Source of the DNA: a virus | Lineage: Duplodnaviria; Heunggongvirae; Uroviricota; Caudoviricetes | Virus record (IMG/VR): IMGVR_UViG_3300009784_000001 | Coordinates: 278,418-342,417 of that record | Length of the DNA stretch: 64,000 nt | Strand: one strand, 5' to 3' | In this document: in pieces, positions 19,652 to 34,908 of the stretch | How positions within the stretch are numbered: the stretch's first letter is position 1 | Layout: the number at the start of each line of letters is the position of its first letter | The notes under the pieces: generated by a model | Seen by the model: the letters and a program-made list of their open reading frames with translations, nothing else | Told to the model about the DNA's origin: nothing | Databases searched by the model: none | Made by a program: the position numbers and the translations under genes

Positions 19652-20773
19652 TTAATTGGATGACATACATTTTTTTATTTTTGATATATCCCATCCTGTT
19701 TTTTCTTGAATTAATTTTTCTGTAAAATCGCTACTTAATGGCCCATCACTAAATCCCAAAAAGGTTATGTAATTTATTTTTTTCTTTGTACATATTTCTT
19801 CAATTCTATTGTATAAATCAATTATAACATTTTTATTTGTTCCAATGATCATATCAAAAATATGATCATCATCTTTTATAAGTAGTTTATTTTTATAGAT
19901 AGATATTTGTTTTGATTCATTATTATTTAGTATAAGGTTATCTAAAATGAAAGTTATATTTTTCCTATTTCCATCTCTCTTAAATGAATTATAACCATAT
20001 ACATGATAATCTTCTTCATAATTATATATTTGCTTATTTAGTATAATCCACTTTTTTATTTCTCTTTTTTTATTACCCCATTCAGTTTTATCTAAATCGT
20101 GAGTAGCTTCAACTATATTTTCAATTAATTTTCCATATTCATTTGGAAATTTTGAGTGTTCTAAATCCTCTTCATTCAATTTTAATAATAATATTTCATA
20201 TTTTCGTTCCCAATCATTCCTTTGAGAATATTTTTTAGATACAATGATATTTTTATTATCCTCTATAAATTTATCATAATCATTAATAGCACTTTTTTTA
20301 TCAAAATATCTACCAAGTTTTTTCCTTTCTTTACCATTTAATGTAACTATTATTCTATATTTACATTCTGATTTTTTCTTTTTCTCAATATGAAAGCCAT
20401 TTCTTCTTGCCTCATTCATTAGCTTTACAAGGTATTTACGTTTACATTCATTTGAACAAAATTTCACTTCATTTCCTTTTTTTAAGTATTTCAACTTAAA
20501 TTCTTTCCCACATTCATCACAAACATAAGTTTTTAGATATTTTCCTCTTTTTCTTTTTATAACACCTTCTTTTATAAGTTTTTCTTTATTTTTATAATAT
20601 CTTGCCAATCCTTGCCTTCTTTCAATTATTTTTTCATATTTCTCTTTATCTTCTTCATTTAATATTGTTAATTCTCTTTTTGATATCACTTCTTCTCCTT
20701 TTTCTATTCTTCCAATTAACTCTTTTTTTCTTTTTTCCATTACAATTTCAAAATTTCCTTTTTTTACTGCCAT
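19652..20773 (-). CDS. basic hypothetical protein with Zn-finger
   Basis: CDECGK..FCSNEC. Confidence 0.6.
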   Translation of the reverse strand: MAVKKGNFEIVMEKRKKELIGRIEKGEEVISKRELTILNEEDKEKYEKIIERRQGLARYYKNKEKLIKEGVIKRKRGKYLKTYVCDECGKEFKLKYLKKGNEVKFCSNECKRKYLVKLMNEARRNGFHIEKKKKSECKYRIIVTLNGKERKKLGRYFDKKSAINDYDKFIEDNKNIIVSKKYSQRNDWERKYEILLLKLNEEDLEHSKFPNEYGKLIENIVEATHDLDKTEWGNKKREIKKWIILNKQIYNYEEDYHVYGYNSFKRDGNRKNITFILDNLILNNNESKQISIYKNKLLIKDDDHIFDMIIGTNKNVIIDLYNRIEEICTKKKINYITFLGFSDGPLSSDFTEKLIQEKTGWDISKIKKCMSSN

Positions 20774-20866
20774 AACTTTTTAATTTGAAATATTATTATT
20801 TTAATATAAATATGTGTATATTTGGAAAGTGATTTATTTAATAAAGAAATATTTTTTTCTATAAAT

Positions 20867-20897
20867 TTTGAAATAAGAAAAAAAGGAATTATCTTTG
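20867..20897 (+). promoter_or_regulatory. Bacteroidota-type promoter
   Basis: TTTG...TATCTTTG. Confidence 0.7.
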
Positions 20898-20924
20898 TAC
20901 TATAAATTTTAAATATTATAAAAA

Positions 20925-21419
20925 ATGAAACTATTTCCAATGTCAGAAGACATACAAGAATTATGTGAACAAGTTATGAAAGATGAAGTTCCAGGTCTTG
21001 CTTCTATGGGTTTAAATTTTAAATATGCTGGTAGTCCAAAATCTCCATCAATAGTAAAAATCTCAAAAGGCAATCCTGTTACTGATTTTTTAACACAGGA
21101 AGAAGGTACAATACTTGTTACTGTTTATGAATTAGCTTTTGAAAGATTAACAGATGAATATAAAAAATTGATTTTAGCATCTGCTTTCGCTTCTATTGAA
21201 TATGATTCAGAAAAAGATAAAATTACTATTGGTGGTAATAATGGTACTTCTTTAAATGAAACAATTTATTTGAAGTATAGAGAACCAGCAGTTTTATCTA
21301 TATTTAATGGATATGCTGTTATCAGACAGATACAGGAAGAAGAAAAAGAAGCAAAAGCTCTTGCTGCTGCTGAAAGAGCAGAAAAAAGAAAATTAAAAAG
21401 TTCTTATGCAGGACAATAA
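20925..21419 (+). CDS. phage metallopeptidase-like fold protein (HExxH absent)
   Basis: TVYELAFERL..K.LI pattern. Confidence 0.4.
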   Translation: MKLFPMSEDIQELCEQVMKDEVPGLASMGLNFKYAGSPKSPSIVKISKGNPVTDFLTQEEGTILVTVYELAFERLTDEYKKLILASAFASIEYDSEKDKITIGGNNGTSLNETIYLKYREPAVLSIFNGYAVIRQIQEEEKEAKALAAAERAEKRKLKSSYAGQ

Positions 21420-21420
21420 A

Positions 21421-21543
21421 TTATTTTTGTCTAATAATTACACGTCTGTTTCCACTTCTATTTACAAAAGGTCTTTGAATTGGTTTTTGTATTTGTGAAG
21501 TAGTTCTTTGTTGAACTTGTGGTTTGGATTTACAATTACACAT
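21421..21543 (-). CDS. small basic protein MCNCKSK (40 aa)
   Basis: Manual translation MCNCKSKPQVQQRTTSQIQKPIQRPFVNRSGNRRVIIRQK. Confidence 0.55.
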   Translation of the reverse strand: MCNCKSKPQVQQRTTSQIQKPIQRPFVNRSGNRRVIIRQK

Positions 21544-21602
21544 ACTTTCTACTATTTATTGAAATAAATATTGATTAATTATATTTTTTTAACATTTTAT
21601 AC

Positions 21603-21633
21603 TTTGAAATTAAAAAATAAATTTATATCTTTG
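21603..21633 (+). promoter_or_regulatory. Bacteroidota-type promoter of first tRNA cluster
   Basis: TTTG...TATCTTTG. Confidence 0.75.
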
Positions 21634-21742
21634 CAGTGTAATTCAAATGAATTAGTGTTGAAGTGATAACTGAGTAAGAACATGATACTTCAAATAAATG
21701 TAGTGAGAGATGTACAGCTTTATTCATTTTTTTAGATAAGGT

Positions 21743-21864
21743 TCCCCTGTAGCTCAGTTGGTTAGAGTACTTAAAATGAAGTTTTCTGGGTAGGAAATGT
21801 TCAGCAATATCAATCAAAATCGCTGTTAACGAAGGGGTCGGCAGTTCGAGTCTGTCCAGGGGTT
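21743..21864 (+). tRNA. tRNA-Asn(GTT)-like with 48-nt insertion in anticodon stem
   Basis: Normal D and T arms; removing 21773-21820 gives CTTCG-CTGTTAA-CGAAG. Confidence 0.75.
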
Positions 21865-21911
21865 CAAAGATTTCTTATTTAGATTAAAATAAGTGGCAGA
21901 GAAGAGGATTA

Positions 21912-21968
21912 AGAAAACATACAGCATTTTTTATCAATTCAACCATAGGAAAGAAAAAGTGTTTTCTG
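21912..21968 (+). ncRNA. CAGCA-stem RNA, copy C
   Basis: AGAAAACA-TACAGCA...TGTTTTCT-G. Confidence 0.6.
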
Positions 21969-22194
21969 AAATAAAAAGATAGGGTTCACTGAGTTAAAGT
22001 GAATAGTTCAATACCAAGGTGAGGGAAGTGTTGAATGATAATATAAGTCCTTACATGTAATATAACTACATATCTAACATGTTTTATATATAGTCATGAA
22101 TGTTATAAAACCTCTGGAACATTTTTTTTTATTAGGGTAGTTTTCATTGGATTAGACCCTGACTTTATGGTAAGTTATATTTACCTTAATTTAT

Positions 22195-22270
22195 TGGAAC
22201 TTAGCTCAGCTTGATTTAGAGCATCTGTTTTACAAGCAGAGGGCCGTGGGTTTAAATCCCCCAGTTCCAA
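22195..22270 (+). tRNA. tRNA-Val(TAC)
   Basis: Cloverleaf, TCTGT-TTTACAA-GCAGA. Confidence 0.9.
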
Positions 22271-22279
22271 CAATTAAAT

Positions 22280-22351
22280 CGGGGGATAGAGCAGTGGTAG
22301 CTCACCAGGCTCATAACCTGGAGGTCGAAGGTTCGATCCCTTCTCCCCCAA
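22280..22351 (+). tRNA. tRNA-Met(CAT), initiator-like C1:A72
   Basis: CCAGG-CTCATAA-CCTGG. Confidence 0.9.
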
Positions 22352-22355
22352 CAAT

Positions 22356-22484
22356 AGGAAAGGTACAGCAAATTGAATTAAAATTCTATTTACAATTTTA
22401 CTATGAGGAAGAGAGCTTTCATCTAAAATAGGTGGAAAACAACTCTCAAAGAAATGAGTACTTCTCTAAAAACTCTCTTTCCTG
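22356..22484 (+). ncRNA. CAGCA-stem RNA, copy D (long interior)
   Basis: AGGAAAG-GTACAGCAA...CTTTCCT-G. Confidence 0.55.
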
Positions 22485-22492
22485 ATATCATA

Positions 22493-22620
22493 AAATAAAT
22501 CTTTACATCAAGGTGTACATAAATCTGTATAGTGGTACAAATGAGGGGCAAAGGAGAAGAATTTGCGTAGTCCGCTTGGAGTATCGGGTAGCTATGGTTG
22601 GGAAAGGTAAAGATTTATTT
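22493..22620 (+). ncRNA. candidate structured RNA closed by a 14-bp stem
   Basis: AAATAAATCTTTAC/GTAAAGATTTATTT enclosing GC-richer core. Confidence 0.4.
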
Positions 22621-22636
22621 TTAATTTTTATATAAT

Positions 22637-23071
22637 ATGTTATATTCAATATTATTAACATTAGGATTATTAATTTTAGCTCATTTTATTGGAGATTGGA
22701 GTAAATTTGTTCCATTTCATCAAAAAGTAGTTAATGCAAAAGTTAATAAAACCAATACATCTGGAAATTGGATATTTTTACATTCAAGTATTGTATCTCT
22801 GTATAAAATATTTGCAATTTTAATTTCATCTTGGATTATTCCAATAGGAAATATGCCAGGTTTTTTGAATACAATATGGTTTTATATTATTCTTGTAGTA
22901 ATATTTTTTGGAGAACTAATAACACATTTTGTATTTGATATTTCTAAATGGTTTCTAAATAATAAATATAATCTGAATCCATCAAAAGATATTTATTGGA
23001 CTGTTGTTGGTATTGACCAAATGCTACATTATTTAGTAATGTTAGGAATGTTATATTTATTATATTGTTAA
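22637..23071 (+). CDS. DUF3307-like membrane protein
   Basis: LAHFIGD..H..THFVFD..GIDQMLH. Confidence 0.75.
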   Translation: MLYSILLTLGLLILAHFIGDWSKFVPFHQKVVNAKVNKTNTSGNWIFLHSSIVSLYKIFAILISSWIIPIGNMPGFLNTIWFYIILVVIFFGELITHFVFDISKWFLNNKYNLNPSKDIYWTVVGIDQMLHYLVMLGMLYLLYC

Positions 23072-23079
23072 TTTTATAT

Positions 23080-23165
23080 GGCTATGTGGCGTAATTGGGA
23101 GCCGCAGGGGACTTAAAATCCCCTCTCCTGTAAAGGAGGTACAGGTTCAAGTCCTGTCATAGCTA
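23080..23165 (+). tRNA. tRNA-Leu(TAA)
   Basis: GGGGA-CTTAAAA-TCCCC, long variable arm. Confidence 0.92.
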
Positions 23166-23168
23166 CGA

Positions 23169-23289
23169 TGAGAATTAGCTCAGTTGGTAGAGCAAAGGTA
23201 TTATAAAAAGTTTCTTGAATAAGAAATGTTCAGCAATATTTAAAAATGGGAACTTTATGTCAGCAGTTCGAGCCTGCTATTCTCATCCA
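23169..23289 (+). tRNA. tRNA-like gene (TGG loop) with about 45-nt insertion in anticodon loop
   Basis: TGAGAAT/ATTCTCA-T-CCA, normal D/T arms, AAGGT/ACTTT stem. Confidence 0.7.
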
Positions 23290-23292
23290 CAT

Positions 23293-23366
23293 TTTCTGGT
23301 AGTTCAATTGAATAGAACCTTCGGCTTCTACCCGAAAAGTTGGGAGTTTGAATCTCCCCCAGAAAG
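23293..23366 (+). tRNA. tRNA-Arg(TCT)
   Basis: TTCGG-CTTCTAC-CCGAA. Confidence 0.88.
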
Positions 23367-23383
23367 CAAAATAAATAGAAAAA

Positions 23384-23614
23384 ATGAGTAGTTGTATTAA
23401 TAGATTAGATGATGAATTAGATGACCAGCAATGGAAAGAAATGGTATTAAAATGGAATGGTTTCAAATTTAAAGTAATTGATGAATTAAATGAAGTTAAA
23501 ATTAAGAATAAATATGATACCAAAGAAGTTGAAGAATGGAAATTTTTATTTAATAATAAATCCAAAATATTAGCGAATAGAGAATTGATTAACTTATTAA
23601 AAAATTGGGAATGA
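23384..23614 (+). CDS. hypothetical protein
   Basis: ORF track. Confidence 0.55.
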   Translation: MSSCINRLDDELDDQQWKEMVLKWNGFKFKVIDELNEVKIKNKYDTKEVEEWKFLFNNKSKILANRELINLLKNWE

Positions 23615-23823
23615 ATATAAAGGTAAAAGAATTAATAAGTAAATTACAATTATTTAATCCAGAAGCCGAAGTTGATATTCTATTTAATAATCAACCTTAT
23701 CCTTTGGAAATATATGGTTGGAATTGTGGTGGAGATAATAATTATTCTTCAACTGAATCTAAACAAAAAGCTATTTCAGTATCATTAGGTGGGATTGGGT
23801 TAAATGATAGTGAAAGAATGTAA
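23605..23823 (+). CDS. hypothetical protein
   Basis: ORF track. Confidence 0.55.
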   Translation: MGMNIKVKELISKLQLFNPEAEVDILFNNQPYPLEIYGWNCGGDNNYSSTESKQKAISVSLGGIGLNDSERM

Positions 23824-24159
23824 ATGAAAAGTAAATTTGAATGTAGAGATAAAGTATCATATAATACATTTGAAGAAGCAAATAAAGTATTATCAGTATG
23901 GGATAAAAAGAAAAATAATAGTGAACAATATGCTTATTCTTGTAAAGAATGTGGAAAGATACATATTACCAGTAGAAAGAAACATCTAAATAAAGTAAAA
24001 CCAATTAAATATAAGGAAATTGGATTTACAAATGAGGATAGAAAAAAATGGGGTGGTAGTCGTTCAGTTAAAGAGCAAAAAGAACTTGTAGAAGTATTGT
24101 ATAAAGGAAGAGAAAATAAAAGAGTTACTTTTGGAGATTTATTAAAAAAAGAATATTAA
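23824..24159 (+). CDS. hypothetical Zn-finger protein
   Basis: AYSCKECGKIHIT. Confidence 0.6.
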   Translation: MKSKFECRDKVSYNTFEEANKVLSVWDKKKNNSEQYAYSCKECGKIHITSRKKHLNKVKPIKYKEIGFTNEDRKKWGGSRSVKEQKELVEVLYKGRENKRVTFGDLLKKEY

Positions 24160-24179
24160 GTTTTTTTAATACAAAATAT

Positions 24180-24210
24180 TTTGGTAACTCAAAAATAATT
24201 CTTATCTTTG
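24180..24210 (+). promoter_or_regulatory. Bacteroidota-type promoter
   Basis: TTTG...TATCTTTG. Confidence 0.75.
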
Positions 24211-24231
24211 TAGTGTTATTTGAAATTATAA

Positions 24232-24419
24232 CGAGAGGTAGCTTAATGGCAGAGCGCAGTCGGAATGTAAAATTGCAATTTAATGTTCTTAAACAAGACT
24301 GAATGGTGTGCTGTGAAAGTTTGAAAAAAGTGAATACAAACTGAATGGGGTTGCAAACCTTGCAAGTTATGATGCTTGAAGTAGAATGAGTAATTGAGGT
24401 TCAATTCCCACCCTCTTGA
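24232..24419 (+). ncRNA. enlarged tRNA-like RNA (about 188 nt)
   Basis: CGAGAGG/CCTCTTG acceptor, D arm, CAGTC/GACTG stem, GGTTCAATTCC T loop. Confidence 0.65.
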
Positions 24420-24438
24420 CAAAAAAAATTAAATTGAT

Positions 24439-24705
24439 ATGAAAACATTAAGAGAAAGACAAATTGGTGAAAGATTTAAATATAGAAAAAATATAGTTGA
24501 AGTCAAATCTGTTATTTATAACAAATGTTTTTATTGTCAATTTAGAAATCAATCTAAATGGATTGTAATTCTAAATGGTTGTTATCAAGAAAAAAATATG
24601 TTTGATTCTTGTTCAAAGAAACATAATTGTTCAAGATATACCAGAAAGGATAAAAAAGATGTTTATTTCAAACTAGTCAAAAGACTTTATTTAGAAAGAA
24701 AATGA
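24439..24705 (+). CDS. hypothetical Cys-rich protein
   Basis: ORF track. Confidence 0.6.
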   Translation: MKTLRERQIGERFKYRKNIVEVKSVIYNKCFYCQFRNQSKWIVILNGCYQEKNMFDSCSKKHNCSRYTRKDKKDVYFKLVKRLYLERK

Positions 24706-25265
24706 TAGGTTCAAATAACACTGATAAGTTTAAGATATTCCAAATAAGATGGGCTGAAAAGTTGGGTTATAACGATAATCCATATTTAATAAGGTGGACA
24801 TTTATATTTTTTGGATATTCAATGAGAATACATCATTGGATTAAATCAGATGATAATAGATATTTTCATGATCATTCAAGTGATTTGTTAAGCATTGTAT
24901 TAAAAGGAAAATATACAAATGTTAAACCTCTTATGTGGAAGAAAAATTTACCTCCAACTCATTTATTTGAAGTTGAATTACCACCAGAATCTTCAATAAA
25001 GAGAAAGTTTATTTCAAATACTGTAGAGTATCCAGTTGAAGGTATTTTTAATTCTTGGAAAAATTTCTTCAATATGAAGAAATCAATATGGTTTTCAAAA
25101 GCAACTGAACAACATTACTTGAGTATTCCAAAAAAAGGTGCATGGACATTGTTATTTGAAGGAAAAGCATATCATAAGTGGGGATTTTATGTAAATCAAC
25201 ATAAATGGAGACCATTAAGATATTTCTCAAAGTTTGGTATAATACAAACAGAAAATTATCAATAA
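24702..25265 (+). CDS. cupin-like phage protein
   Basis: RIHHWIKSDD..FHDH..SIVLKGKY. Confidence 0.55.
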   Translation: MIGSNNTDKFKIFQIRWAEKLGYNDNPYLIRWTFIFFGYSMRIHHWIKSDDNRYFHDHSSDLLSIVLKGKYTNVKPLMWKKNLPPTHLFEVELPPESSIKRKFISNTVEYPVEGIFNSWKNFFNMKKSIWFSKATEQHYLSIPKKGAWTLLFEGKAYHKWGFYVNQHKWRPLRYFSKFGIIQTENYQ

Positions 25266-25281
25266 TTTTTAACATAAAAAA

Positions 25282-25313
25282 TTTGGTCATTAAAAATAAA
25301 ATTTGTATCTTTG
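25282..25313 (+). promoter_or_regulatory. Bacteroidota-type promoter
   Basis: TTTG...TATCTTTG. Confidence 0.75.
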
Positions 25314-25607
25314 CATTATAAATTATGTTTTATTGATAGATTCAGGTACTGAATATTGGCACTGTAAAATATAGTTTAGAGTAATAGGCAGTAAGTCATA
25401 TATCTATGAGTAGAGGGTAACGTTTGAAATTAGTATATACTCCTTTGAAAAAGTGCAATGACCTATTATTTTTTATTAAATATTGATAATTTTTTAAATA
25501 ATAGTATATTTATATTAAAAAACTTATAAATGGGTATTGAACCATAAATAAAAAGTAAAAACAAAAAAAGCAATGGGAACAGATGCTTAAAAAAAGAAAA
25601 AAAAGAA

Positions 25608-25739
25608 ATGAGAGAATTTAGTAAACATATTAATAATTTTGTTGAGGTTAGTTATAAACCCAATAGTAATTGTAATTCAAATGAAAAACCATTTGAAGAT
25701 GATAATAATTTGCTAAAAGGATTTTGTGTATATATGTAA
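25608..25739 (+). CDS. putative attenuator leader peptide 1 (Asn/Glu/Lys/Asp/Pro-rich, 43 aa)
   Basis: MREFSKHINNFVEVSYKPNSNCNSNEKPFEDDNNLLKGFCVYM. Confidence 0.7.
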   Translation: MREFSKHINNFVEVSYKPNSNCNSNEKPFEDDNNLLKGFCVYM

Positions 25740-25760
25740 CATTTACTCAAATATACGTTC

Positions 25761-25810
25761 CACAAACCCTGATAGCAAAATTAAAAAAGTTATCAGGGTT
25801 TTGTGTTTTT
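25761..25810 (+). terminator. attenuator terminator before tRNA operon 1
   Basis: CACAAACCCTGATAGC/GTTATCAGGGTTTTGTG + T run. Confidence 0.8.
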
Positions 25811-25817
25811 AATATAT

Positions 25818-25888
25818 GGCGCATTAGTTTAGTGGTAGAACAGGCGGTTTTCAGCCGAAGGAGAGGGTTTCGATTACCCTATGCGCTA
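25818..25888 (+). tRNA. tRNA-Glu(TTC), weak anticodon stem
   Basis: CGG-TTTTCAG-CCG. Confidence 0.75.
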
Positions 25889-25895
25889 CAAATAT

Positions 25896-25968
25896 GTACC
25901 TGTGGCAGAGTGGTTTATGCACTTGACTGTTAATCAAGACTACGAAGGTTCGATCCCTTCTGGGTACG
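25896..25968 (+). tRNA. tRNA-Asn(GTT)
   Basis: CTTGA-CTGTTAA-TCAAG. Confidence 0.9.
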
Positions 25969-25975
25969 CAAAAAT

Positions 25976-26049
25976 AGAGAGTATAGCATAATCTGGTAAG
26001 TGTGCCTTCCAAGTGGGAAGGAGATGTGGTTCAAATCCAATACTTTCTG
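25976..26049 (+). tRNA. atypical tRNA-like gene (loop CAAGTGG, nominal AGT)
   Basis: 8-bp acceptor, CCTTC/GAAGG stem, GGTTCAAATCC; lacks U33. Confidence 0.55.
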
Positions 26050-26056
26050 CAAAAAT

Positions 26057-26128
26057 AGTCTATTGGTCCAGCGGTTAGGATGCCAGATTGTCAATCTGGT
26101 GGCGAGGGTTCAACTCCCTTATAGACTG
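26057..26128 (+). tRNA. tRNA-Asp(GTC)
   Basis: CCAGA-TTGTCAA-TCTGG. Confidence 0.9.
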
Positions 26129-26134
26129 CTATTT

Positions 26135-26207
26135 CTGGGTGTAATTCAGTAGGAAGAATGCTTGGTTTGGGACCAAGATGTCGGGAGTTCGAGCCTCTCT
26201 ACTCAGA
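26135..26207 (+). tRNA. tRNA-Pro(TGG)
   Basis: CTTGG-TTTGGGA-CCAAG. Confidence 0.9.
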
Positions 26208-26214
26208 CAAAATT

Positions 26215-26290
26215 CGGATAGTAGGGAAGCTCGGTCGTTCCCGCCTGCCCTGGACGCAGGAGATCATAGGTTCAAATCCTGTTTATCCGA
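26215..26290 (+). tRNA. tRNA-Pro(TGG), C33 variant
   Basis: CCTGC-CCTGGAC-GCAGG; C1-G72, A73. Confidence 0.8.
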
Positions 26291-26427
26291 CTATAATTAA
26301 AAAAGTTAAAGGGACTTTGAAAAGAATTATAAGTGAAAATAATATGAGTAATAAATTAAAAATAAAACGAAAATGTAGCTGACCTCACAGTTAATATGGG
26401 CTGTGAGGTTGGGAATAAGGATATTAC

Positions 26428-26500
26428 TCCCTCATAGCTCAATGGTTTAGAGCTTCTGTCTTTTAAACAGAAGAACCAGGTCCGATTCCTGGTGGGGGAA
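26428..26500 (+). tRNA. tRNA-Lys(TTT)
   Basis: TCTGT-CTTTTAA-ACAGA. Confidence 0.9.
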
Positions 26501-26518
26501 CTATAAAAATAAAAAAAA

Positions 26519-26740
26519 ATGTTTTGGGATAACAAAAATAAATGTAAGAAGTATTGTATAGGTTGTAAATTTGCAAGTGAATTTAATAATAATTTTTATT
26601 GTGTTAATGAACTTGGTGAATATATTGTTGCAACAAAAAATCAAGTTTTAGTATCATTGGGATATACAGCTTTACATATATGTAGAGGTTTATTAATAAA
26701 GAAAAATTGCCCATTTTTTGAAAAAGATAGAAAATTATGA
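26519..26740 (+). CDS. hypothetical Cys-rich protein
   Basis: ORF track. Confidence 0.55.
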   Translation: MFWDNKNKCKKYCIGCKFASEFNNNFYCVNELGEYIVATKNQVLVSLGYTALHICRGLLIKKNCPFFEKDRKL

Positions 26741-26985
26741 AAGAAATTAGTATTAAAGATGTAATTGATAATAGTAAAAGAGCTAAATTAACTCATGCTA
26801 TTGCAGGGAGATTGTATTATAGGGTAGATGATATAGAAAGAAATACTACATATCAATTTTGTGTAGATATGAATGATAAAGAAGATGTTGGTTCAACTAC
26901 ATTTATTGTAGATGAAAAAGCTATTCTTTTAATGAGATATATTAGAAAATCAAAAGATTCTGGTGATTTAATTCAAATTAAATAG
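26737..26985 (+). CDS. hypothetical phage protein
   Basis: ORF track. Confidence 0.6.
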   Translation: MKEISIKDVIDNSKRAKLTHAIAGRLYYRVDDIERNTTYQFCVDMNDKEDVGSTTFIVDEKAILLMRYIRKSKDSGDLIQIK

Positions 26986-26989
26986 CATA

Positions 26990-27181
26990 ATGAGTTTTAT
27001 TTATGAAATAAAAAATTTAGAGAAAATAAAAGAAGAAGGTAGTATTTACATTCAATGCCCATGTTGCCAAGAAAGTTTTGATTATTATCTAGATAAATAT
27101 GAATTAGATATTTTGAATAAAGAAGAGGACATTTATTGTAAGTGTATAGAATGTGGTAATTCTTTCTATCTTTCTTTGTAG
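26990..27181 (+). CDS. small Zn-ribbon protein
   Basis: CPCC..CIECG. Confidence 0.6.
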   Translation: MSFIYEIKNLEKIKEEGSIYIQCPCCQESFDYYLDKYELDILNKEEDIYCKCIECGNSFYLSL

Positions 27182-27312
27182 ATTATCAAAAAGTGATAAA
27201 AATCATTTTATGTATTGTAAAAGATGAAAAGAATAAATTTGGTATATTCAATAATAATTTGTACTTTTGCGATATAATTATCTATTTATAGATACAACAA
27301 AAAAGTATAAAA

Positions 27313-27648
27313 ATGAAAAAAAGAATTATTATTTTATTATCATTATTTTTCATAATGAACATAAGTCAAGCAGCTATTTATAAAACAAAAAGTGAAAGTG
27401 ATGTAATTGAGAATAGTACAGGTTTATTTGGAGAAAAAAAAGTAGAGAAAATTGAAAATACAGAAGATAATTATGGTGGATTATTCAGAGCATCAGATCC
27501 AGGTGGAAGACCAGGGAATGGTGATGGAATTGGTCAGCAAGCACCATTAGGTGATGGATTAAAAATATTACTTATACTTTGTTTTTTCTTTCTTCTTTAT
27601 GAATTTTCTACAAACAAAAAAATTAACATAAAAAATTTGGATAATTAA
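27313..27648 (+). CDS. secreted protein with C-terminal sorting-like motif
   Basis: Signal peptide; QAPLGDGLKILL + TM + basic tail. Confidence 0.6.
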   Translation: MKKRIIILLSLFFIMNISQAAIYKTKSESDVIENSTGLFGEKKVEKIENTEDNYGGLFRASDPGGRPGNGDGIGQQAPLGDGLKILLILCFFFLLYEFSTNKKINIKNLDN

Positions 27649-27667
27649 AAAATAAATTGTAATTTTG
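27636..27667 (+). promoter_or_regulatory. Bacteroidota-type promoter
   Basis: TTTG...TAATTTTG. Confidence 0.65.
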
Positions 27668-27704
27668 TAGAGTAATAAGATATTTATAAGATATAAAAAT
27701 AGAT

Positions 27705-27782
27705 CGTGGTGTGGAGGAGTCTGGCTTTCCTCATCTGGCTCATAACCAGAATGTCACATGGGTTCAAATCCCATCACCGCAA
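27705..27782 (+). tRNA. tRNA-Met(CAT), initiator-like C1:A72
   Basis: TCTGG-CTCATAA-CCAGA. Confidence 0.88.
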
Positions 27783-27787
27783 CAAAT

Positions 27788-27841
27788 AGAAAACATACAG
27801 CATTTTTTCAATTTTCAATGGGAGAAAAAAAGTGTTTTCTG
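27788..27841 (+). ncRNA. CAGCA-stem RNA, copy E
   Basis: AGAAAACA-TACAGCA..TTTTC-AATGGGA-GAAAA..TGTTTTCT-G. Confidence 0.65.
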
Positions 27842-27850
27842 AAAAAAATA

Positions 27851-27932
27851 AGGAAAGATACAGCAATGTTAAATGGTTAAAAGAAAATTCTGTAAAAATT
27901 TTTTGAAAAGGTTCAAATCCTATTCTTTCCTG
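27851..27932 (+). ncRNA. CAGCA-stem RNA, copy F, tRNA-Tyr(GTA)-like
   Basis: AGGAAAG-ATACAGCAA, AAAATT-CTGTAAA-AATTTT, AGG-TTCAAAT-CCT, CTTTCCT-G. Confidence 0.7.
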
Positions 27933-27968
27933 TAAATTTGAAAAGTTAAATTAAAAAAAATAGAAAAA

Positions 27969-28079
27969 ATGAAACAAATTAGTAGTACATATTGTCTTGG
28001 AAGTTCATCAGCGATTAGTTTTGCTGGTACAACATCCTTTTGTACTTATCATTTTTATGATAATTTTGTTTCAAGTTAA
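27969..28079 (+). CDS. putative attenuator leader peptide 2 (Ser/Thr/Phe/Tyr/Cys/Ala-rich, 36 aa)
   Basis: MKQISSTYCLGSSSAISFAGTTSFCTYHFYDNFVSS. Confidence 0.8.
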   Translation: MKQISSTYCLGSSSAISFAGTTSFCTYHFYDNFVSS

Positions 28080-28108
28080 AAAAAGAATTACCTTAACCTG
28101 GCAAGGAT

Positions 28109-28153
28109 AAACCTGAAACAAATCTATAAAAAAGAAAAGTTTCAGGTTTTTTT
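28109..28153 (+). terminator. attenuator terminator before tRNA operon 2
   Basis: AAACCTGAAAC/GTTTCAGGTTT + T run. Confidence 0.8.
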
Positions 28154-28162
28154 AATTTATAT

Positions 28163-28247
28163 GGAAAGTAAACCTATAAGGTGTAGGAACCGCCTGCTAA
28201 GCGAGTTGTACAATTAAATGTATGTGAATCGTGTTCACTGCTCTCCG
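28163..28247 (+). tRNA. tRNA-Ser(GCT), non-canonical T arm
   Basis: CGC-CTGCTAA-GCG, long variable arm, G73. Confidence 0.75.
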
Positions 28248-28288
28248 CAAAAGTTCTTTGAAATTGTTGGTTAATTATAAATTATTAT

Positions 28289-28371
28289 GGATTAGTTGGG
28301 TAGTGGCAATCCCAAGACACTGTAACTGTCTCGCCTTCGGGCTTTCGCTGGTTCGAGTCCAGCCTAATCCA
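28289..28371 (+). tRNA. tRNA-Tyr(GTA)
   Basis: AGACA-CTGTAAC-TGTCT. Confidence 0.92.
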
Positions 28372-28412
28372 CATAAAAATATTTTTCTTAATAACTATAC
28401 TTTTTTAGTTCG

Positions 28413-29384
28413 ATGCGATATTTATATATAAATGTAAATATTATGATAAAGGAACGAGAAGAATTAATTATTAAAATAATAAAAGAGAGTAATAGTATTT
28501 CAGAGGTTTGTAAAAAGTTAAATATATCTGTTACTAATGGTAATTATATAACAATAAAAAAAATAATAAAAAACAATAATTTAGATATATCTCATTTTAA
28601 AAGAGTTTCACAAAATTCTAATAAAAAGCGATATACGTTACAAGAAATTATGGTTGAAAATTCATCATACACCAATGTAAATAAATTAAAGAAAAGATTA
28701 ATTAAAGAAGGGATTAAGGAAAATAAATGTGAAATATGTGGAATAAGTAAATGGAATGGAGAACAAATTTCTTTACAATTGCATCATAAAAATGGTATCA
28801 CAAGTGATAATAGAATAGAAAATTTACAAGTACTTTGTCCCAATTGTCATTCTCAAACACATAACTATGGTGGGAAAAATATAGATAATAAAATAAGAGA
28901 AGATAGATTTTGCAGAATATGTGAGAAAAAGTTAAACGATACACAAAAAAAGTATTGTTCAATCAATTGCTATAATAAAAGTATTGATGATAATATTCCA
29001 ACTAAAAACAAAATCTTATCTTATATAAAAAATTATACAACACTTGTAGAATTATGTAAAAAAGAAAAAATTGATAGAGGGACATTTAGAAATTGGTGTA
29101 ATAAAAGACAATGTATAGATGATGTAAATTTTTTGTTGAAAAAAAATTTTGAAATAAAAATTTTAAATATTGAAGTTAAGAATGATTTATATGAAAAAAG
29201 ATGTGAATTAATAAATAAATTTAAAAAATTTGGGTCATTCTTACAAGTAGGTAAATATTATGGAGTATCCGATAATATGATAAGAAAAAGATGTAAAAAA
29301 ATTGGTTTACCTGTTCATACAAAAGAAATGATAAAATTAATAAATTCGGAAGAATGTCAGAGTGCTTTATTGTACAACTCTTGA
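28413..29384 (+). CDS. HNH homing endonuclease with HTH repeats
   Basis: CEICG..LQLHHKNG..DNRIENLQVLCPNCH. Confidence 0.85.
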   Translation: MRYLYINVNIMIKEREELIIKIIKESNSISEVCKKLNISVTNGNYITIKKIIKNNNLDISHFKRVSQNSNKKRYTLQEIMVENSSYTNVNKLKKRLIKEGIKENKCEICGISKWNGEQISLQLHHKNGITSDNRIENLQVLCPNCHSQTHNYGGKNIDNKIREDRFCRICEKKLNDTQKKYCSINCYNKSIDDNIPTKNKILSYIKNYTTLVELCKKEKIDRGTFRNWCNKRQCIDDVNFLLKKNFEIKILNIEVKNDLYEKRCELINKFKKFGSFLQVGKYYGVSDNMIRKRCKKIGLPVHTKEMIKLINSEECQSALLYNS

Positions 29385-29432
29385 AAAGTTGTGAACTTTC
29401 GAGTTCCGTAGGTTGGAATCCTACTTCTTCCG
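29348..29432 (+). tRNA. tRNA-Ser(TGA)
   Basis: CAACT-CTTGAAA-AGTTG. Confidence 0.9.
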
Positions 29433-29443
29433 CAAGATAATAA

Positions 29444-29516
29444 GGGATAGTAACATAGAAGTTTATGTGCTGGTCTGAAAAACCAGAAATGCTTGAGGCG
29501 GTATCAGCCTATCCCA
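29444..29516 (+). tRNA. tRNA-Phe(GAA), non-canonical T loop
   Basis: CTGGT-CTGAAAA-ACCAG. Confidence 0.8.
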
Positions 29517-29526
29517 CAAATTAAAT

Positions 29527-29612
29527 GCTTCAATGGGGGAATTGCTAGACCCGCTTGATTTAGGCTCAAGTTTCTGGGAACAGAAGTGTAGGTTGGATTC
29601 CTACTTGAAGTA
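29527..29612 (+). tRNA. tRNA-Leu(TAG)
   Basis: CTTGA-TTTAGGC-TCAAG. Confidence 0.9.
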
Positions 29613-29618
29613 CAATAT

Positions 29619-29690
29619 GTTCAGTTGCCAGAGTGATAATGGGGTAGACTGCAAATCTATTTTTCGTTGGTTTGAATCCAACACTGAATT
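29619..29690 (+). tRNA. tRNA-Cys(GCA)
   Basis: GTAGA-CTGCAAA-TCTAT, U73. Confidence 0.9.
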
Positions 29691-29702
29691 CAAAAAATAA
29701 AT

Positions 29703-29773
29703 GCTGTGTTAGTATAAGAGTATTACATTGGCTTTGTAACCCAAAAATGGGGATGCGATTTCCTCACACAGCT
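29703..29773 (+). tRNA. tRNA-Thr(TGT)
   Basis: TTGGC-TTTGTAA-CCCAA. Confidence 0.82.
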
Positions 29774-29782
29774 CTAAATTAA

Positions 29783-29854
29783 GGGCTTATCATATAATAG
29801 CTATTATGCCACCCCTGCAAGGTGGTTATTGGAGTGCAATTCTCCATAGGTCCA
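29783..29854 (+). tRNA. tRNA-Ala(TGC)
   Basis: G3.U70; CCACC-CCTGCAA-GGTGG. Confidence 0.85.
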
Positions 29855-29883
29855 CTTATTTAGCATTTATTAACTTGAATAAT

Positions 29884-29914
29884 TTTGATATTAGATAATA
29901 TTTTCTTATCTTTG
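29884..29914 (+). promoter_or_regulatory. Bacteroidota-type promoter
   Basis: TTTG...TATCTTTG. Confidence 0.7.
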
Positions 29915-29933
29915 TATCATTAAAATAAATGGT

Positions 29934-30548
29934 ATGAAAAAGATAGAATTAGTTTATAATAATTTAGATATTAATAATTTACCAGGTGAAATATGGGTAG
30001 ATGCTTATGATTTTGATGGTTATTATGAAGTATCCAATATGGGGAGGATAAAAACTTGTGAAAGAGAAGTCAGTAATGGAGTTGGGACAAGAATAGTAAT
30101 TAGTAAAATTAGGAAACAGGTTTTAGGTAAAGATGATAGATTAACTTGTCCCTTTACTATAAATAATGAAAGTATATCTATAAATGTTTCAAGGTTAATC
30201 TTTCAATCTTTTAACCCCACTAAGATTTTAGATAATTTAGTGGTTTCACATAGAAATAGATGTAAATGTGATAATAGATTGAATAATTTAAAAGTGGAAA
30301 CATTACAAAACAATCATTTTGATAATGTTCATAAGTATAATTATGGCTTAAAAGAACATTTGTTAAAACTGAATAAAATTAAACATGAAAAATTTGTCAA
30401 TACAATAAAAAGCAAAGTTTGTAATAAATGTGGAATAGAAAAAGATATAATAGAATTTGTATATAAAAGAGAAGGAAAAAGAGATGAAAATAGAAATATA
30501 TGTAAAATGTGTAGAAATAAACGTGAAAGAAATAGAATTAAAAAATGA
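29934..30548 (+). CDS. NUMOD4-HNH endonuclease
   Basis: EIWVD..YEVSNMGRIK; VSHRNRCKCDNRLNNL. Confidence 0.8.
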   Translation: MKKIELVYNNLDINNLPGEIWVDAYDFDGYYEVSNMGRIKTCEREVSNGVGTRIVISKIRKQVLGKDDRLTCPFTINNESISINVSRLIFQSFNPTKILDNLVVSHRNRCKCDNRLNNLKVETLQNNHFDNVHKYNYGLKEHLLKLNKIKHEKFVNTIKSKVCNKCGIEKDIIEFVYKREGKRDENRNICKMCRNKRERNRIKK

Positions 30549-30967
30549 GTTATAAAGATTTTTTTCAAAAACCAGAGTTTGATTTGGATGAAGTAGAAGA
30601 AAAAAGAGTAAATGCTTTGAAACCAGATGAAAATGGTGATTTAATGGAAAATGGTGATTATATTTTTCAGGATAGAGCAATTCATAATCAACAAGGTAAT
30701 ACAATTCAGCGTTCTTTTACAACTGTAAAGGGAGTTAGAGTAATGGAAGATACTTACATACCCTGGTCATGCTTTCAACCAATGAGGATGACTTTTGTGG
30801 TAGATTTGACATTGCCTGATGATACATTACCAACAACTGAAACAAGTTGGATGCAAAATTGGTATGAGCCTGAAGGATTTGCTCATCCTGCATTTGTAAA
30901 TTTTGAAGATGTTGTTGAATTTATAATTAAATGGAGAAAAAGTAACCCTAAAGTGGTTAATAATTAA
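30545..30967 (+). CDS. hypothetical protein
   Basis: ORF track. Confidence 0.6.
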   Translation: MSYKDFFQKPEFDLDEVEEKRVNALKPDENGDLMENGDYIFQDRAIHNQQGNTIQRSFTTVKGVRVMEDTYIPWSCFQPMRMTFVVDLTLPDDTLPTTETSWMQNWYEPEGFAHPAFVNFEDVVEFIIKWRKSNPKVVNN

Positions 30968-30975
30968 ATAAAAAT

Positions 30976-31048
30976 GTTCAGTTCTTCTAATGGTTTAGGA
31001 AGCAAGACTGATATTCTTGTAATATAAGTTCGATTCTTATACTGAACA
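30976..31048 (+). tRNA. tRNA-Ile(GAT)
   Basis: CAAGA-CTGATAT-TCTTG. Confidence 0.88.
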
Positions 31049-31050
31049 CT

Positions 31051-31128
31051 GTGTGGGTAGCTAATATTGGTTAAGGCACTAGATTGTGGCTCTAGGTTTT
31101 TATGGGGGTTCGATTCCCCTCTCACACC
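31051..31128 (+). tRNA. tRNA-His(GTG)
   Basis: CTAGA-TTGTGGC-TCTAG, C73. Confidence 0.9.
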
Positions 31129-31142
31129 AAAAATAAGAAAGT

Positions 31143-31173
31143 TTTGTTATTTAAAAAATTATTCATATCTTTG
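31143..31173 (+). promoter_or_regulatory. Bacteroidota-type promoter
   Basis: TTTG...TATCTTTG. Confidence 0.7.
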
Positions 31174-31193
31174 TATTGTAAATTAAATAAGAT

Positions 31194-31700
31194 ATGAAAA
31201 AAATCAGAAAATTTGTATTTGAAACAAACAGTTCAAGTTCTCATTCTATTACATTAGGTGATTTAGATTCATTTAGAAAAGATAGATATGGATTAAAATC
31301 TTGTATAGATGAAAATAACAATCTTGTATTAAAAGGTGGTGAATTTGGTTGGTATTTAGAAGATGATGAGGGTGCTGAAACAAAAGTAAATTATGTTGCA
31401 GTAGCTTTAACTTATTATTATGAAGCTGCGAAAGACAATGAAGAAAATTATTATGGTTTTACATTAGATGAAATCAATAATATTATTGAATTATTTAAAG
31501 AAGTTTTGAGAGAAGAAACAGATGCAGAAGTTGTTTTCAATTTTAAAGTAGGTTGGGAAGATTCTTACATTGATCATCAATCTATTGATATGATTGCAGA
31601 TGAAATTAAAGGTAAAAATGATTCAGAATTGAAAGAATTTTTCTATAATTTCATTTTTAATGAAAATTCAATATTAATAATTGATAATGATAATCATTAA
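31194..31700 (+). CDS. acidic phage protein with FETNSSS motif
   Basis: MKKIRKFVFETNSSSSHS. Confidence 0.7.
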   Translation: MKKIRKFVFETNSSSSHSITLGDLDSFRKDRYGLKSCIDENNNLVLKGGEFGWYLEDDEGAETKVNYVAVALTYYYEAAKDNEENYYGFTLDEINNIIELFKEVLREETDAEVVFNFKVGWEDSYIDHQSIDMIADEIKGKNDSELKEFFYNFIFNENSILIIDNDNH

Positions 31701-31899
31701 TTATGAATGAAGATAGTGGAGTTAGTTGTGGATGTGGTTGTTTTTCTTTTAGTATAGGTTGGGGGACTATTATTGCTGTAATATTAAGTTGAATGAAATG
31801 GCATTCAATTGGATGGGTAATTATTCATGGGTTATTAGGATGGTTATATGTAATATATTATATTGCAAAATATGTGTTATTAAATTAAAAATATATAAT

Positions 31900-32340
31900 A
31901 TGAAAAAAATTAGAATTAGTGTTTTTGAAACGAATAGTTCCAGCACTCATAGTCTTACAATTGTATCAAAAGAAGATTTTGAGAAGTGGAAAAAAGGTGA
32001 ATTTATTTTTGACAGAAGTAATGATGAATTAGTTCCTGTTAAAGAGAAGCAATATACAGAAGAAGATTATTTAAATTATCTTAAAGATAAAGCCAAAAAA
32101 GTTGCAAATGGATATATTTTTAGAGATGTTTATTATAAAAATCTAGATGAAATATTATCATTAAATCTTATTTCTAATGATGAAATGAATGAATATTTAG
32201 AAGATGAAGGATATGATTATGATTTTCAAACTTATAAAGATTGGGAAAATGATGAATATCTTGAAACATTTCAATATTCACATACTACTCCAAGTGGAGA
32301 TGAAATTGTGGTTTTTGGTAGATATGGTTATGATGGATAA
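31900..32340 (+). CDS. second FETNSSS-motif protein
   Basis: MKKIRISVFETNSSSTHS; ATG 31900 chosen by homology to the paralog. Confidence 0.7.
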   Translation: MKKIRISVFETNSSSTHSLTIVSKEDFEKWKKGEFIFDRSNDELVPVKEKQYTEEDYLNYLKDKAKKVANGYIFRDVYYKNLDEILSLNLISNDEMNEYLEDEGYDYDFQTYKDWENDEYLETFQYSHTTPSGDEIVVFGRYGYDG

Positions 32341-32488
32341 TATATGATTTCGATAATACAACAAAAAAATATAATAAAAGAATTTATTGATTATCTACCT
32401 TTTTCTGTTCTAACAAATGAACATTCTAGGTATAAAAAGGAAATAAGTTTATATGATTATCTTGAAGAATATATTAAAAAATTAAGAG

Positions 32489-33430
32489 ATGGAGATATTG
32501 AAATCATACAAAAATGGTAATGTTGAAATTACATTATATGATAATGGAACGAGGGTAATGGAATATGATGAAACTAAACCATTATTATTTGATTATCCTA
32601 CATCTATGGATATTAAAATTACTAATTATTGTGAAGGCGGAAAGATAACCAAGAATGGTGATTTTAAATTGTGCCAATTTTGTCATGAGGAATCAAATAA
32701 AGATGGAAAACATGCTAATTTAATTGAATTAAGTAATATTTTATTTGATATTCCAGAAGGAGTTGAAATTGCACTAGGTGGAGGTAATCCATTATCACAT
32801 CCAAATTTAGTTGCTTTTTTATTAAGATGTAAAAAACAAGGTTTAATTCCTAATTTAACAGTTAATAAAAATCATCTTGTTTTTTATTATGATTTATTAA
32901 AAAATTTAATAGATAATAAATTAATTTATGGATTAGGCATATCAATTCCTACTTCTGTATGTGAATGGAATGAAAAAGAGTTATTTTTTGTAAATTATAA
33001 ACATTCAGTTGCTCATTTAATTATAGGATTGCATTCTACTAAAATAATAAATATTTTAAGAAAGATTGGTTTCAAAAAATTTTTATTATTGGGCTATAAA
33101 GAATTTGGAAGAGGTATAAAATATTATAATAGTCATTCTAATAAAATAAATGAAAATATTAAAGAATGGGAAAACAATATATTAAATATTCTAACTACTG
33201 CTAATGTAATTTCTTTTGATAATTTATCTATTAGTCAACTTAATTTACAATCTAAATTGCCTAAGAAATTGTGGGATAAATTTTATCAAGGAGATGATTT
33301 TAGTTCAACTTTGTATTTGGATGCTGTAACTAAACAGTTTGCTCCTACTTCAAGAAGCAATAAAAATGAAAGGGTAAATTGGAAAGATATAAGTTTATTA
33401 GATTATTTCAGAGATAATAGAAGAAAGTAA
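32489..33430 (+). CDS. radical SAM protein
   Basis: DIKITNYC-x13-CQFCHE, EIALGGGNP. Confidence 0.85.
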   Translation: MEILKSYKNGNVEITLYDNGTRVMEYDETKPLLFDYPTSMDIKITNYCEGGKITKNGDFKLCQFCHEESNKDGKHANLIELSNILFDIPEGVEIALGGGNPLSHPNLVAFLLRCKKQGLIPNLTVNKNHLVFYYDLLKNLIDNKLIYGLGISIPTSVCEWNEKELFFVNYKHSVAHLIIGLHSTKIINILRKIGFKKFLLLGYKEFGRGIKYYNSHSNKINENIKEWENNILNILTTANVISFDNLSISQLNLQSKLPKKLWDKFYQGDDFSSTLYLDAVTKQFAPTSRSNKNERVNWKDISLLDYFRDNRRK

Positions 33431-33457
33431 AAGTTAGATATTTATTATAAAAAAGTA

Positions 33458-34312
33458 ATGAAGAATTTAGATGAAATAAAGTTTTTATTTGAAAGAAAAG
33501 AAGAAGAGACTTTTCAAGAATATAGTGATAGAAAGGAAAAAGAACGAAGTGTATCAAGTAGTTGTAATCATAAGGGGGGGGGGATTCTTAATGAATCTGT
33601 TTCAAAAAAAAGTACTTCTGAAAGACCAAATTTTATTTCTGAAATAAAAGGTTCAACAACTAATACATGGTCTTTACATAGACTTGATGAGATGACTGTA
33701 CAAAGATTATTAGGAAAACATTCTAATAATGGTTATATAATTATATCAGCAAGTAGAGGAGTGGAAAATGAATGGAATGAACAACAGAAACAAGAACAAA
33801 GAAGATTGAATAATGAAAATTATCAAAAATTATTAGCTTCAATAAAAAATAGTGGCTTTTCTTTTATTCCTGTATATGGTGGATTTGTTGAAAATTTAGG
33901 AGAAGAAGATGAAAGACAGGTTTATGAAAAATCATTTATTGTTTTGAATTTTAATAGAAAAGGAAATGAAATGGATTTTAATGAACTTTATCAAAAAGGT
34001 TTAGAATGGACTGAAGAATTTGATCAAGATTCATTTTTATCAAAGGCTCCTGATTCAACACCAGAATATGTTGATAAAGGAGGAAATGTAACAATGAAGT
34101 TTGGTGGGGATATAAAAGTAAATGATTTAACTCAACAATATTTCACAGATTTCGTTAAGTCAAAACAATTAGGTCAAGAAACAAATACAAAGGGTGATTC
34201 AATGAGTAGAGAACACAGGATTACTTTTGAAGGAGTATTTATAAATCCTGAACCTGCTACTTTGAGTGAAAGAGTTGTAAGGGATTATTTAAATGAATTA
34301 TTTTTGAAATAA
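33458..34312 (+). CDS. putative SAM lyase (T3 SAMase-like)
   Basis: YIIISASR..GGFVE..EKSFIV..EFDQDSFL. Confidence 0.65.
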   Translation: MKNLDEIKFLFERKEEETFQEYSDRKEKERSVSSSCNHKGGGILNESVSKKSTSERPNFISEIKGSTTNTWSLHRLDEMTVQRLLGKHSNNGYIIISASRGVENEWNEQQKQEQRRLNNENYQKLLASIKNSGFSFIPVYGGFVENLGEEDERQVYEKSFIVLNFNRKGNEMDFNELYQKGLEWTEEFDQDSFLSKAPDSTPEYVDKGGNVTMKFGGDIKVNDLTQQYFTDFVKSKQLGQETNTKGDSMSREHRITFEGVFINPEPATLSERVVRDYLNELFLK

Positions 34313-34333
34313 TGTGATATTTATATAAATAAA

Positions 34334-34426
34334 ATGAAAAAAAATACAAACATATTATTAGTTGGGCAACAAGGTTGGCAACAATTTGGACAAGGCTGTG
34401 GCAATGTTCCTGATAATGGTATGTAA
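34334..34426 (+). CDS. putative attenuator leader peptide 3 (Gly/Gln/Trp-rich, 30 aa)
   Basis: MKKNTNILLVGQQGWQQFGQGCGNVPDNGM. Confidence 0.85.
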   Translation: MKKNTNILLVGQQGWQQFGQGCGNVPDNGM

Positions 34427-34460
34427 GTATATAAGGATAACCTTCGCAAATGGTGGCTCT

Positions 34461-34497
34461 GGCTTACATTACTATTAAAAGTATGTAAGCCTTTTTT
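34461..34497 (+). terminator. attenuator terminator before tRNA operon 3
   Basis: GGCTTACAT/ATGTAAGCC + TTTTTT. Confidence 0.85.
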
Positions 34498-34504
34498 AAT
34501 TTAT

Positions 34505-34576
34505 AGATTAGTGGTATAATGGTTATTACACATCGCTTTGAACGATGGAATTCCTGTTCAATTCAGGACTAATCTA
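34505..34576 (+). tRNA. tRNA-Gln(TTG)
   Basis: CATCG-CTTTGAA-CGATG. Confidence 0.88.
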
Positions 34577-34690
34577 CATCATATCAATGGCAATAGATAT
34601 GATAATAGAATAGAAAATTTACAAATACTTTGTCCTAATTGTCATTCTCAAACTGATAGTTATGCAGGAAAAAGTAGTAGAAAAAAATAA
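34574..34690 (+). pseudogene. HNH endonuclease remnant abutting tRNA-Gln
   Basis: LHHINGNRYDNRIENLQILCPNCHSQTDSYAGKSSRKK*. Confidence 0.8.
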
Positions 34691-34693
34691 AAT

Positions 34694-34765: not shown

Positions 34766-34775
34766 CAAAATATAT

Positions 34776-34846: not shown

Positions 34847-34908
34847 CTTACTTTGAAATGTTAAATAATCTAAAATTTTTATATTATCTAATTTATTAAC
34901 ATTTTCTA

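Follow-up and report, generated by a model that had tools for sequence, protein, structure and literature searches.

A putative translation-coupled transcription attenuator upstream of a phage tRNA array

Results

Genomic context of the tRNA region

We analyzed a 64,000-nt stretch of viral DNA (hereafter the window, whose numbering is used unless another locus is named), which corresponds to bases 278418-342417 of a single virus record of 359,943 bp and 26% G+C. Approximately 27 tRNA genes are found at 21.7-35 kb of the window, among small ORFs and HNH endonuclease genes. One HNH endonuclease gene (28413-29384) is located inside a tRNA array, and an HNH remnant (34538-34690) lies between tRNA-Gln and tRNA-Gly. 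The region also contains two tRNA-like genes (21743-21865 and 23169-23289) with inserts of about 40 nt, scored at 36 and 35 bits by Rfam and detected by ARAGORN in intron mode only, as well as two copies (21918-21985 and 27795-27860) of an element of about 60 nt (CATACAGCATTTTTT ... GTGTTTTCTGAAA), each found after tRNA genes.

The unit described here lies on the plus strand and consists of a promoter motif, a small ORF, a terminator-like hairpin and a group of tRNA genes. Upstream of it, the window encodes a 187-aa protein (24702-25265) that matches phrog_4786 ('cysteine dioxygenase', E=7e-22). Among phage contigs of 380-400 kb from gut and rumen, this protein is widespread beside tRNA regions.

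A Bacteroidota-type promoter (TTTG, 20 nt, then TATCTTTG) is present at 25282-25313, 295 nt upstream of the small ORF, with a predicted start near 25318. The sigma-A promoter motif of Bacteroidota and its position at -12 to -5 have been described previously (PMC7366714, PMC9723704). In the window, TTTG-N16-23-TANNTTTG (TAnnTTTG) is found 26 times versus 8.9 expected, mostly before genes. Since this motif is of the Bacteroidota sigma-A type, the phage host is presumably a member of this phylum, and the host polymerase would transcribe the tRNA region. A scan for host-type promoters found no TTTG..TAnnTTTG motif between the hairpin (25761-25810) and the tRNAs, nor in the 136-nt gap ahead of tRNA-Lys. 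With a promoter upstream of the leader and none past the hairpin, the tRNAs would, on this evidence, be made by readthrough only.

The predicted transcript would begin with an untranslated stretch of about 290 nt (25318-25607), the fold of which is unremarkable (z=-1.5). It contains two mini-ORFs of five codons each (25530-25547 and 25573-25590), both located just ahead of the leader and after an A-run, and both reading M-G-x-acidic-small followed by TAA. Rfam searches of 25300-26520 (E up to 10) and of 20000-36000 (E up to 1) returned tRNAs only, with no riboswitch and no T-box, and we therefore rejected the identification of the unit as a T-box riboswitch. A search of GenBank phage DNA with 25200-26600 as query gave matches at the tRNA level only.

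A small ORF with a core rich in Lys, Pro, Asn, Glu and Asp

The leader ORF (25608-25739; protein P0001) comprises 43 codons from ATG to TAA and ends 21 nt before the hairpin. It has an A-rich start context, and the A-rich sequence upstream of the ATG resembles that of other genes of the genome. The P0001 peptide has no Pfam or PHROG family match. We found both the ORF and the composition reported in a first-pass annotation of this DNA, according to which 14 of the 18 residues at positions 17-34 are K, P, N, E or D. This segment (25656-25709), which we regard as the candidate regulatory core, contains each of the five amino acids at least twice; there is no Thr codon anywhere in the leader. Two of the core codons encode Pro, which accounts for 3% of the proteome. 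The first of them (25659-25661) is CCC, a codon that makes up 0.13% of the codons in the phage's long ORFs.

The first-pass annotation had proposed comparing this composition with that of the genome, while warning that it would be weaker evidence here than in the other two leaders of the phage. K, N, E, D and P together represent 34.1% of the phage proteome (long ORFs). For the whole leader (20/42), the enrichment is borderline when compared with the proteome (binomial p=0.048 against the phage's own proteome; P=0.07 against random proteome windows of the same length), and P=0.008 when compared with the spurious small ORFs of the genome, which average 22% K/P/N/E/D versus 48% in the leader. 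The core is significantly enriched (P about 0.002-0.005): its 14/18 as best 18-residue window gave P=0.0016 against proteome windows and 0.005 against small ORFs, the window being picked post hoc, and requiring an 18-residue window to contain each of the five amino acids twice or more gave P=0.0033, this statistic being likewise picked post hoc. Adding Thr to the set, i.e. counting an odd tRNA of the array as Thr, brings the whole-leader p to 0.19. The enrichment is thus real but modest and indeed weaker than in the sister leaders (p about 1e-5 each), and leader composition taken alone is suggestive and no more.

Protein searches identified three metagenomic homologues of the leader: P0002 (44 aa), P0005 (40 aa) and P0004 (43 aa), which are encoded on contigs of 526 bp (NCBI), 927 bp (ENA) and 12,221 bp (JGI/Logan), respectively. 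The leader frame is retained in these diverged sequences, with one in-frame codon indel. Their cores contain 15, 16 and 15 K/P/N/E/D residues among 18, respectively, next to the 14 of P0001, and pairwise identity between the four sequences averages 0.77 in the core versus 0.37 in the N-terminal part. At variable columns, the core has 13 residues within the amino-acid set and 3 outside it; the corresponding numbers for the N-terminal part are 12 and 21 (Fisher p=0.005). Such toggling within the set is partly expected from mutation alone, since the codons for K, N, E and D are single-base neighbours in A-rich DNA. The homologues were compared as proteins and are visible only where a gene caller made an ORF, which represents an ascertainment bias. 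Degenerate DNA patterns for the conserved core had no match in viral and genome contig collections.

The block NSNEKPF is invariant in all four homologues. In the phage, the most conserved leader block (codons 24-30) also encodes a perfect 8-bp hairpin (25676-25697), and its conservation may therefore be at the RNA level rather than at the codon level. We speculate that this hairpin may act as a polymerase pause hairpin.

The ORF 3' end can pair with the arm of a terminator

The leader is followed by a putative intrinsic terminator in which a 5' arm (25761-25775), a large A-rich loop (25776-25789) and a 3' arm (25790-25805) are followed by a T-run (25806-25810). Its stem consists of 15 pairs with a single bulge (-18.2 kcal/mol); 7 nt separate the TTTTT from tRNA-Glu. 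Imperfect pairing between a leader segment and the terminator arm had also been noted by the first-pass annotation. We found both segments: the candidate antiterminator 5' strand corresponds to codons 34-41 (25707-25728), contains a near-copy (10/11) of the end of the terminator 3' arm, and forms an imperfect duplex with 25761-25782 at -13.9 kcal/mol, versus -6.0 +/- 1.8 when the 106 nt upstream were subjected to 1000 dinucleotide shuffles (P=0.002). The 5' arm is common to both structures, which are mutually exclusive, and the first 7 nt of the unusually large loop (to 25782) lengthen the antiterminator helix. When only the 15-nt stem arm is considered, the pairing loses strength but remains unusual (-9.0 kcal/mol, z=-2.8, P=0.017).

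Whether the antiterminator is competitive in folding had likewise been raised, and the nascent folds speak in its favor. In RNA ending at 25790, i.e. before the 3' arm is made, the antiterminator is part of the minimum-energy fold, irrespective of whether a ribosome is placed at codon 26. When 25722-25752 is masked to mimic a ribosome located on the TAA (25737), given the known size of ribosome footprints, the terminator fold is obtained instead. The two states have energies of -16.1 (antiterminator) versus -26.3 kcal/mol (terminator) and, in the usual picture, the antiterminator would win only through forming first.

We then scored all 45 terminator-like hairpins of the 360-kb genome for upstream pairing by one rule. 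The hairpin at 25761-25810 has the strongest upstream pairing (rank 1 of 45, z=-5.3), and the three hairpins that precede tRNA arrays occupy ranks 1, 2 and 3, for which the chance with three named items is about 7 in 100,000. Loops are mostly 4-7 nt in the ordinary terminators of the genome versus 12-19 nt in these three, where part of the loop joins the antiterminator helix. Four other large-loop hairpins of the genome have an upstream pairing score near zero. The alternative pairing is strong evidence, and the strongest that we have, for an attenuator.

A search of IMG/VR with the exact hairpin pattern returned 13 palindromes, all unrelated. The T-run followed by AATWTAT is enriched (9 versus 1.9 expected). 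We considered a promoter hidden in this sequence and tentatively set it aside, since the motif resembles the tails of ordinary terminators of the genome and lies too close to the tRNA for transcription to start ahead of it.

The downstream tRNA genes

Six abutting tRNA genes occupy 25818-26291 on the plus strand, followed after 136 nt by tRNA-Lys(ttt) at 26428-26501. The six tRNAs listed by the first-pass annotation (Glu-Asn-Asp-Pro-Pro-Lys) were all confirmed by ARAGORN and Rfam: Glu(ttc) starts at 25818, Asn(gtt) at 25896, Asp(gtc) at 26057, Pro(tgg) at 26135 and a second Pro(tgg), with C33, at 26215. That list had left out a seventh, odd tRNA (25976-26050) located between Asn and Asp, which ARAGORN calls Thr(agt) and Rfam scores at 32.9 bits. 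Its position 33 is A instead of U (A33), its anticodon arm could alternatively fold as 6 pairs with a 5-nt loop, and it is possibly not functional in decoding. The 'Thr(agt)' call in a related phage (L006) was considered as a homologue of this gene and rejected, as the two are not homologous. The second tRNA-Pro(tgg) (26215-26291) adjoins the canonical one and combines C33 with an enlarged D arm.

The phage uses four codons more than any others, namely AAT, AAA, GAA and GAT, which represent 28% of all its codons. Since the array serves these codons, the unit would gate the tRNAs that are in highest demand.

Sister units and related phages

Two sister units are found in the same phage (27969-28150 and 34334-34491), and each has its parts in the same order: an ORF whose 3' end provides the antiterminator strand, then a terminator with a large loop and its T-run, and finally the first tRNA. 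The sister leaders are dissimilar in sequence and rich in other residues, which match their own arrays (p about 1e-5 each). For their terminators, the stem-only pairing test is not significant and the signal depends on the loop extension. Of all the units, the one at 25608 has the least pronounced composition signal, and its antiterminator signal is the strongest.

Via the 187-aa protein upstream of the leader we collected relatives at 65 loci (61-71% identity); their tRNA regions are rearranged and contain no leader orthologue. Most relatives with tRNA arrays lack the attenuator design, and four hairpins that precede tRNAs in relatives, without an ORF, have no antiterminator. Only one locus, L001, shares the design, and its version of the 187-aa protein is about 70% identical. 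There, a 36-codon ORF (L001:8614-8724) and a terminator (8758-8799) form a unit (8614-8799) before Ile-Cys-Lys-Phe tRNAs; the ORF is unrelated to the 43-aa leader, and a duplex of -17.2 kcal/mol is predicted between its 3' end and the terminator (P=0.014).

In all four units, the T-run lies 7-11 nt from the first tRNA, and the antiterminator strand is in the last codons or on the stop codon of the ORF (4/4). Moreover, in a 4x4 matrix of leaders versus tRNA arrays, each leader scores best with its own array, and the true assignment ranks 1 of 24.

Discussion

We propose that the unit at 25608 is a transcription attenuator. That it is coupled to translation in one way or another appears likely to us; with somewhat less confidence, we favor a ribosome-mediated (leader-peptide) attenuator that senses specific codons and gates the phage tRNA array. 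An attenuator had been suggested by the first-pass annotation; neither of the two outcomes that it had named as refuting was obtained, and this reading is now supported by the pairing, the promoter layout, the three homologous leaders and the fourth unit in L001. Termination at the hairpin, translation of the leader ORF and codon-specific sensing are what we infer from sequence and folding.

According to this model, the promoter at 25282-25313 would start a transcript carrying the 43-codon ORF, then the terminator and then the tRNAs. A ribosome reading the leader smoothly would reach the TAA at 25737 and cover roughly 25719-25750, including the G-containing half of the antiterminator strand. 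With this strand covered, the terminator would form and transcription would end before the tRNAs. If the ribosome is delayed between positions 17 and about 30 by codons for Lys, Asn, Glu, Asp or Pro, 25707-25728 would instead be free to pair with the 5' arm as the arm emerges. Consequently, no terminator would form, and the Glu, Asn, Asp, Pro and Lys tRNA genes would be transcribed. In this way, the availability of charged tRNAs for AAT, AAA, GAA and GAT would be subject to negative feedback. The placement of the stop codon fits this model, with the TAA at 25737 and the antiterminator strand ending at 25728. Codon-specific sensing is the least secure step. In particular, the last four core codons are so near the antiterminator strand that a ribosome stalled on them would partly cover it.

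The attenuator might be coupled to translation and yet not be codon-specific, sensing the overall translation capacity, with the K/P/N/E/D richness reflecting nothing but an A-rich ORF. This would agree with the whole-leader enrichment of just p about 0.05-0.07, with K, N, E and D codons being the commonest in the genome, and with a geometry of stop codon and antiterminator that suits any slow-down. We nevertheless consider it unlikely: the spurious small ORFs of the genome reach 22% K/P/N/E/D versus 48% in the leader, the core has two Pro codons in spite of the 3% of Pro in the proteome, the core composition is kept in the homologues, and the sister leaders favor quite other amino acids, in each case those that suit the array behind them (p about 1e-5 each). 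Still less probable, in our opinion, is that the ORF is incidental and that the RNA is either a switch worked by some factor other than the ribosome (such as a protein, tRNA or small RNA) or a terminator of fixed leakiness that sets a constant tRNA level. The evidence for terminator and antiterminator needs no translation, it is true, and the conserved block overlaps an RNA hairpin. On the other hand, there is no Rfam match (T-box and riboswitches included, E up to 10), and a 43-codon open frame is uncommon in DNA of 26% GC (about 2% per frame, a base-composition estimate). Moreover, the frame is retained in three diverged homologues, and an antiterminator strand lies at the ORF end or stop codon in 4/4 units.

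The conservation of the peptide in residue order, beyond composition, would rather suit a normal gene for a small protein, ending in a terminator of its own. In that case, the tRNAs would stem from readthrough without regulation or from a phage promoter that has escaped recognition, for which the T-run and AATWTAT common to several terminators leave some scope, and the complementarity would be coincidental. The complementarity is statistically unusual (P=0.002), the hairpins that precede tRNAs hold ranks 1-3 among 45, the tRNA begins only 7 nt after the T-run, and the peptide matches no Pfam or PHROG family, all of which makes this explanation improbable. Finally, the hairpin abuts the 5' end of the first tRNA and might serve to process or stabilise the tRNA precursor rather than to terminate transcription. 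Its hairpin and T-run have the same form as the other terminators of the genome, and the competing upstream pairing would be left unexplained; we give this last explanation very little credence.

By design, the closest known systems to the proposed codon-sensing attenuator are the multivalent leader-peptide attenuators of the enterobacterial amino-acid operons thr, ilvGMEDA and ilvBN, for which trp and his are the single-amino-acid models. Like the thr and ilv attenuators, the phage unit has a short leader ORF with codons for several amino acids and an intrinsic terminator, and the antiterminator 5' strand would be covered by the ribosome at the leader end, with slow decoding leading to readthrough. 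Unlike them, it would regulate tRNA genes instead of biosynthetic enzymes. Furthermore, it belongs to a phage whose promoters suggest a Bacteroidota host, its leader is without similarity to known ones, and a role in it for a counterpart of their 1:2 pause structure is a guess.

By target, the closest parallel is the control of charging enzymes. Leader-peptide control of aminoacyl-tRNA synthetase genes is exerted by the pheST leader of E. coli. In bacilli, a His-rich leader precedes hisS paralogues (PMC2965389). In these cases, as would be true of the phage unit, a gene of the translation apparatus is turned on by the slow reading of cognate leader codons; the pheST and hisS leaders act on a charging enzyme for one amino acid, whereas the phage unit would act on the tRNAs themselves and for five amino acids at once. 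T-box riboswitches also use transcription attenuation to report the state of a specific tRNA and to exert feedback on the translation apparatus. They bind the uncharged tRNA directly via the specifier loop and the T-box sequence, with no ORF, while the phage unit has one.

Phage-encoded tRNAs are usually treated as constitutive supplements for codon-usage mismatch. Our full-text literature searches on these topics yielded no account of leader-peptide attenuation acting on tRNA genes. The classic design is thus known, and tRNA genes as its target are probably new. If our model is correct, the phage would gauge decoding speed directly and adjust its tRNA supply by feedback, and classical attenuation would reach from enzyme genes to non-coding RNA genes. 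The unit would also constitute a compact natural sensor of codon-specific translation speed. Leader-peptide attenuation has been considered likely in a Bacteroidota species (PMC9723704); the phage unit would show attenuation at work in a phage whose motifs point to a host of this group, where it is little studied.

In a broader view, several different multivalent leaders of this giant phage might monitor decoding in the infected cell by codon class, each switching on only the tRNA block for the codons that are slow. We see about as much reason to accept this extension as to doubt it. If true, it would amount to a modular feedback control of tRNA supply via transcription attenuation, in which the 25608 unit governs the tRNAs for the four commonest codons.

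The related phages also offered two further observations. A 393-kb relative encodes a tRNA with anticodon CTA (L006:310-381), of which there is none in the window's own genome; it is possibly an amber suppressor or a sign of TAG recoding. In L001, a Bacteroidota promoter at 9131-9190 has a -7 box that ends 4 nt before tRNA-Ala, so that the transcript would start almost at the mature 5' end of the tRNA.
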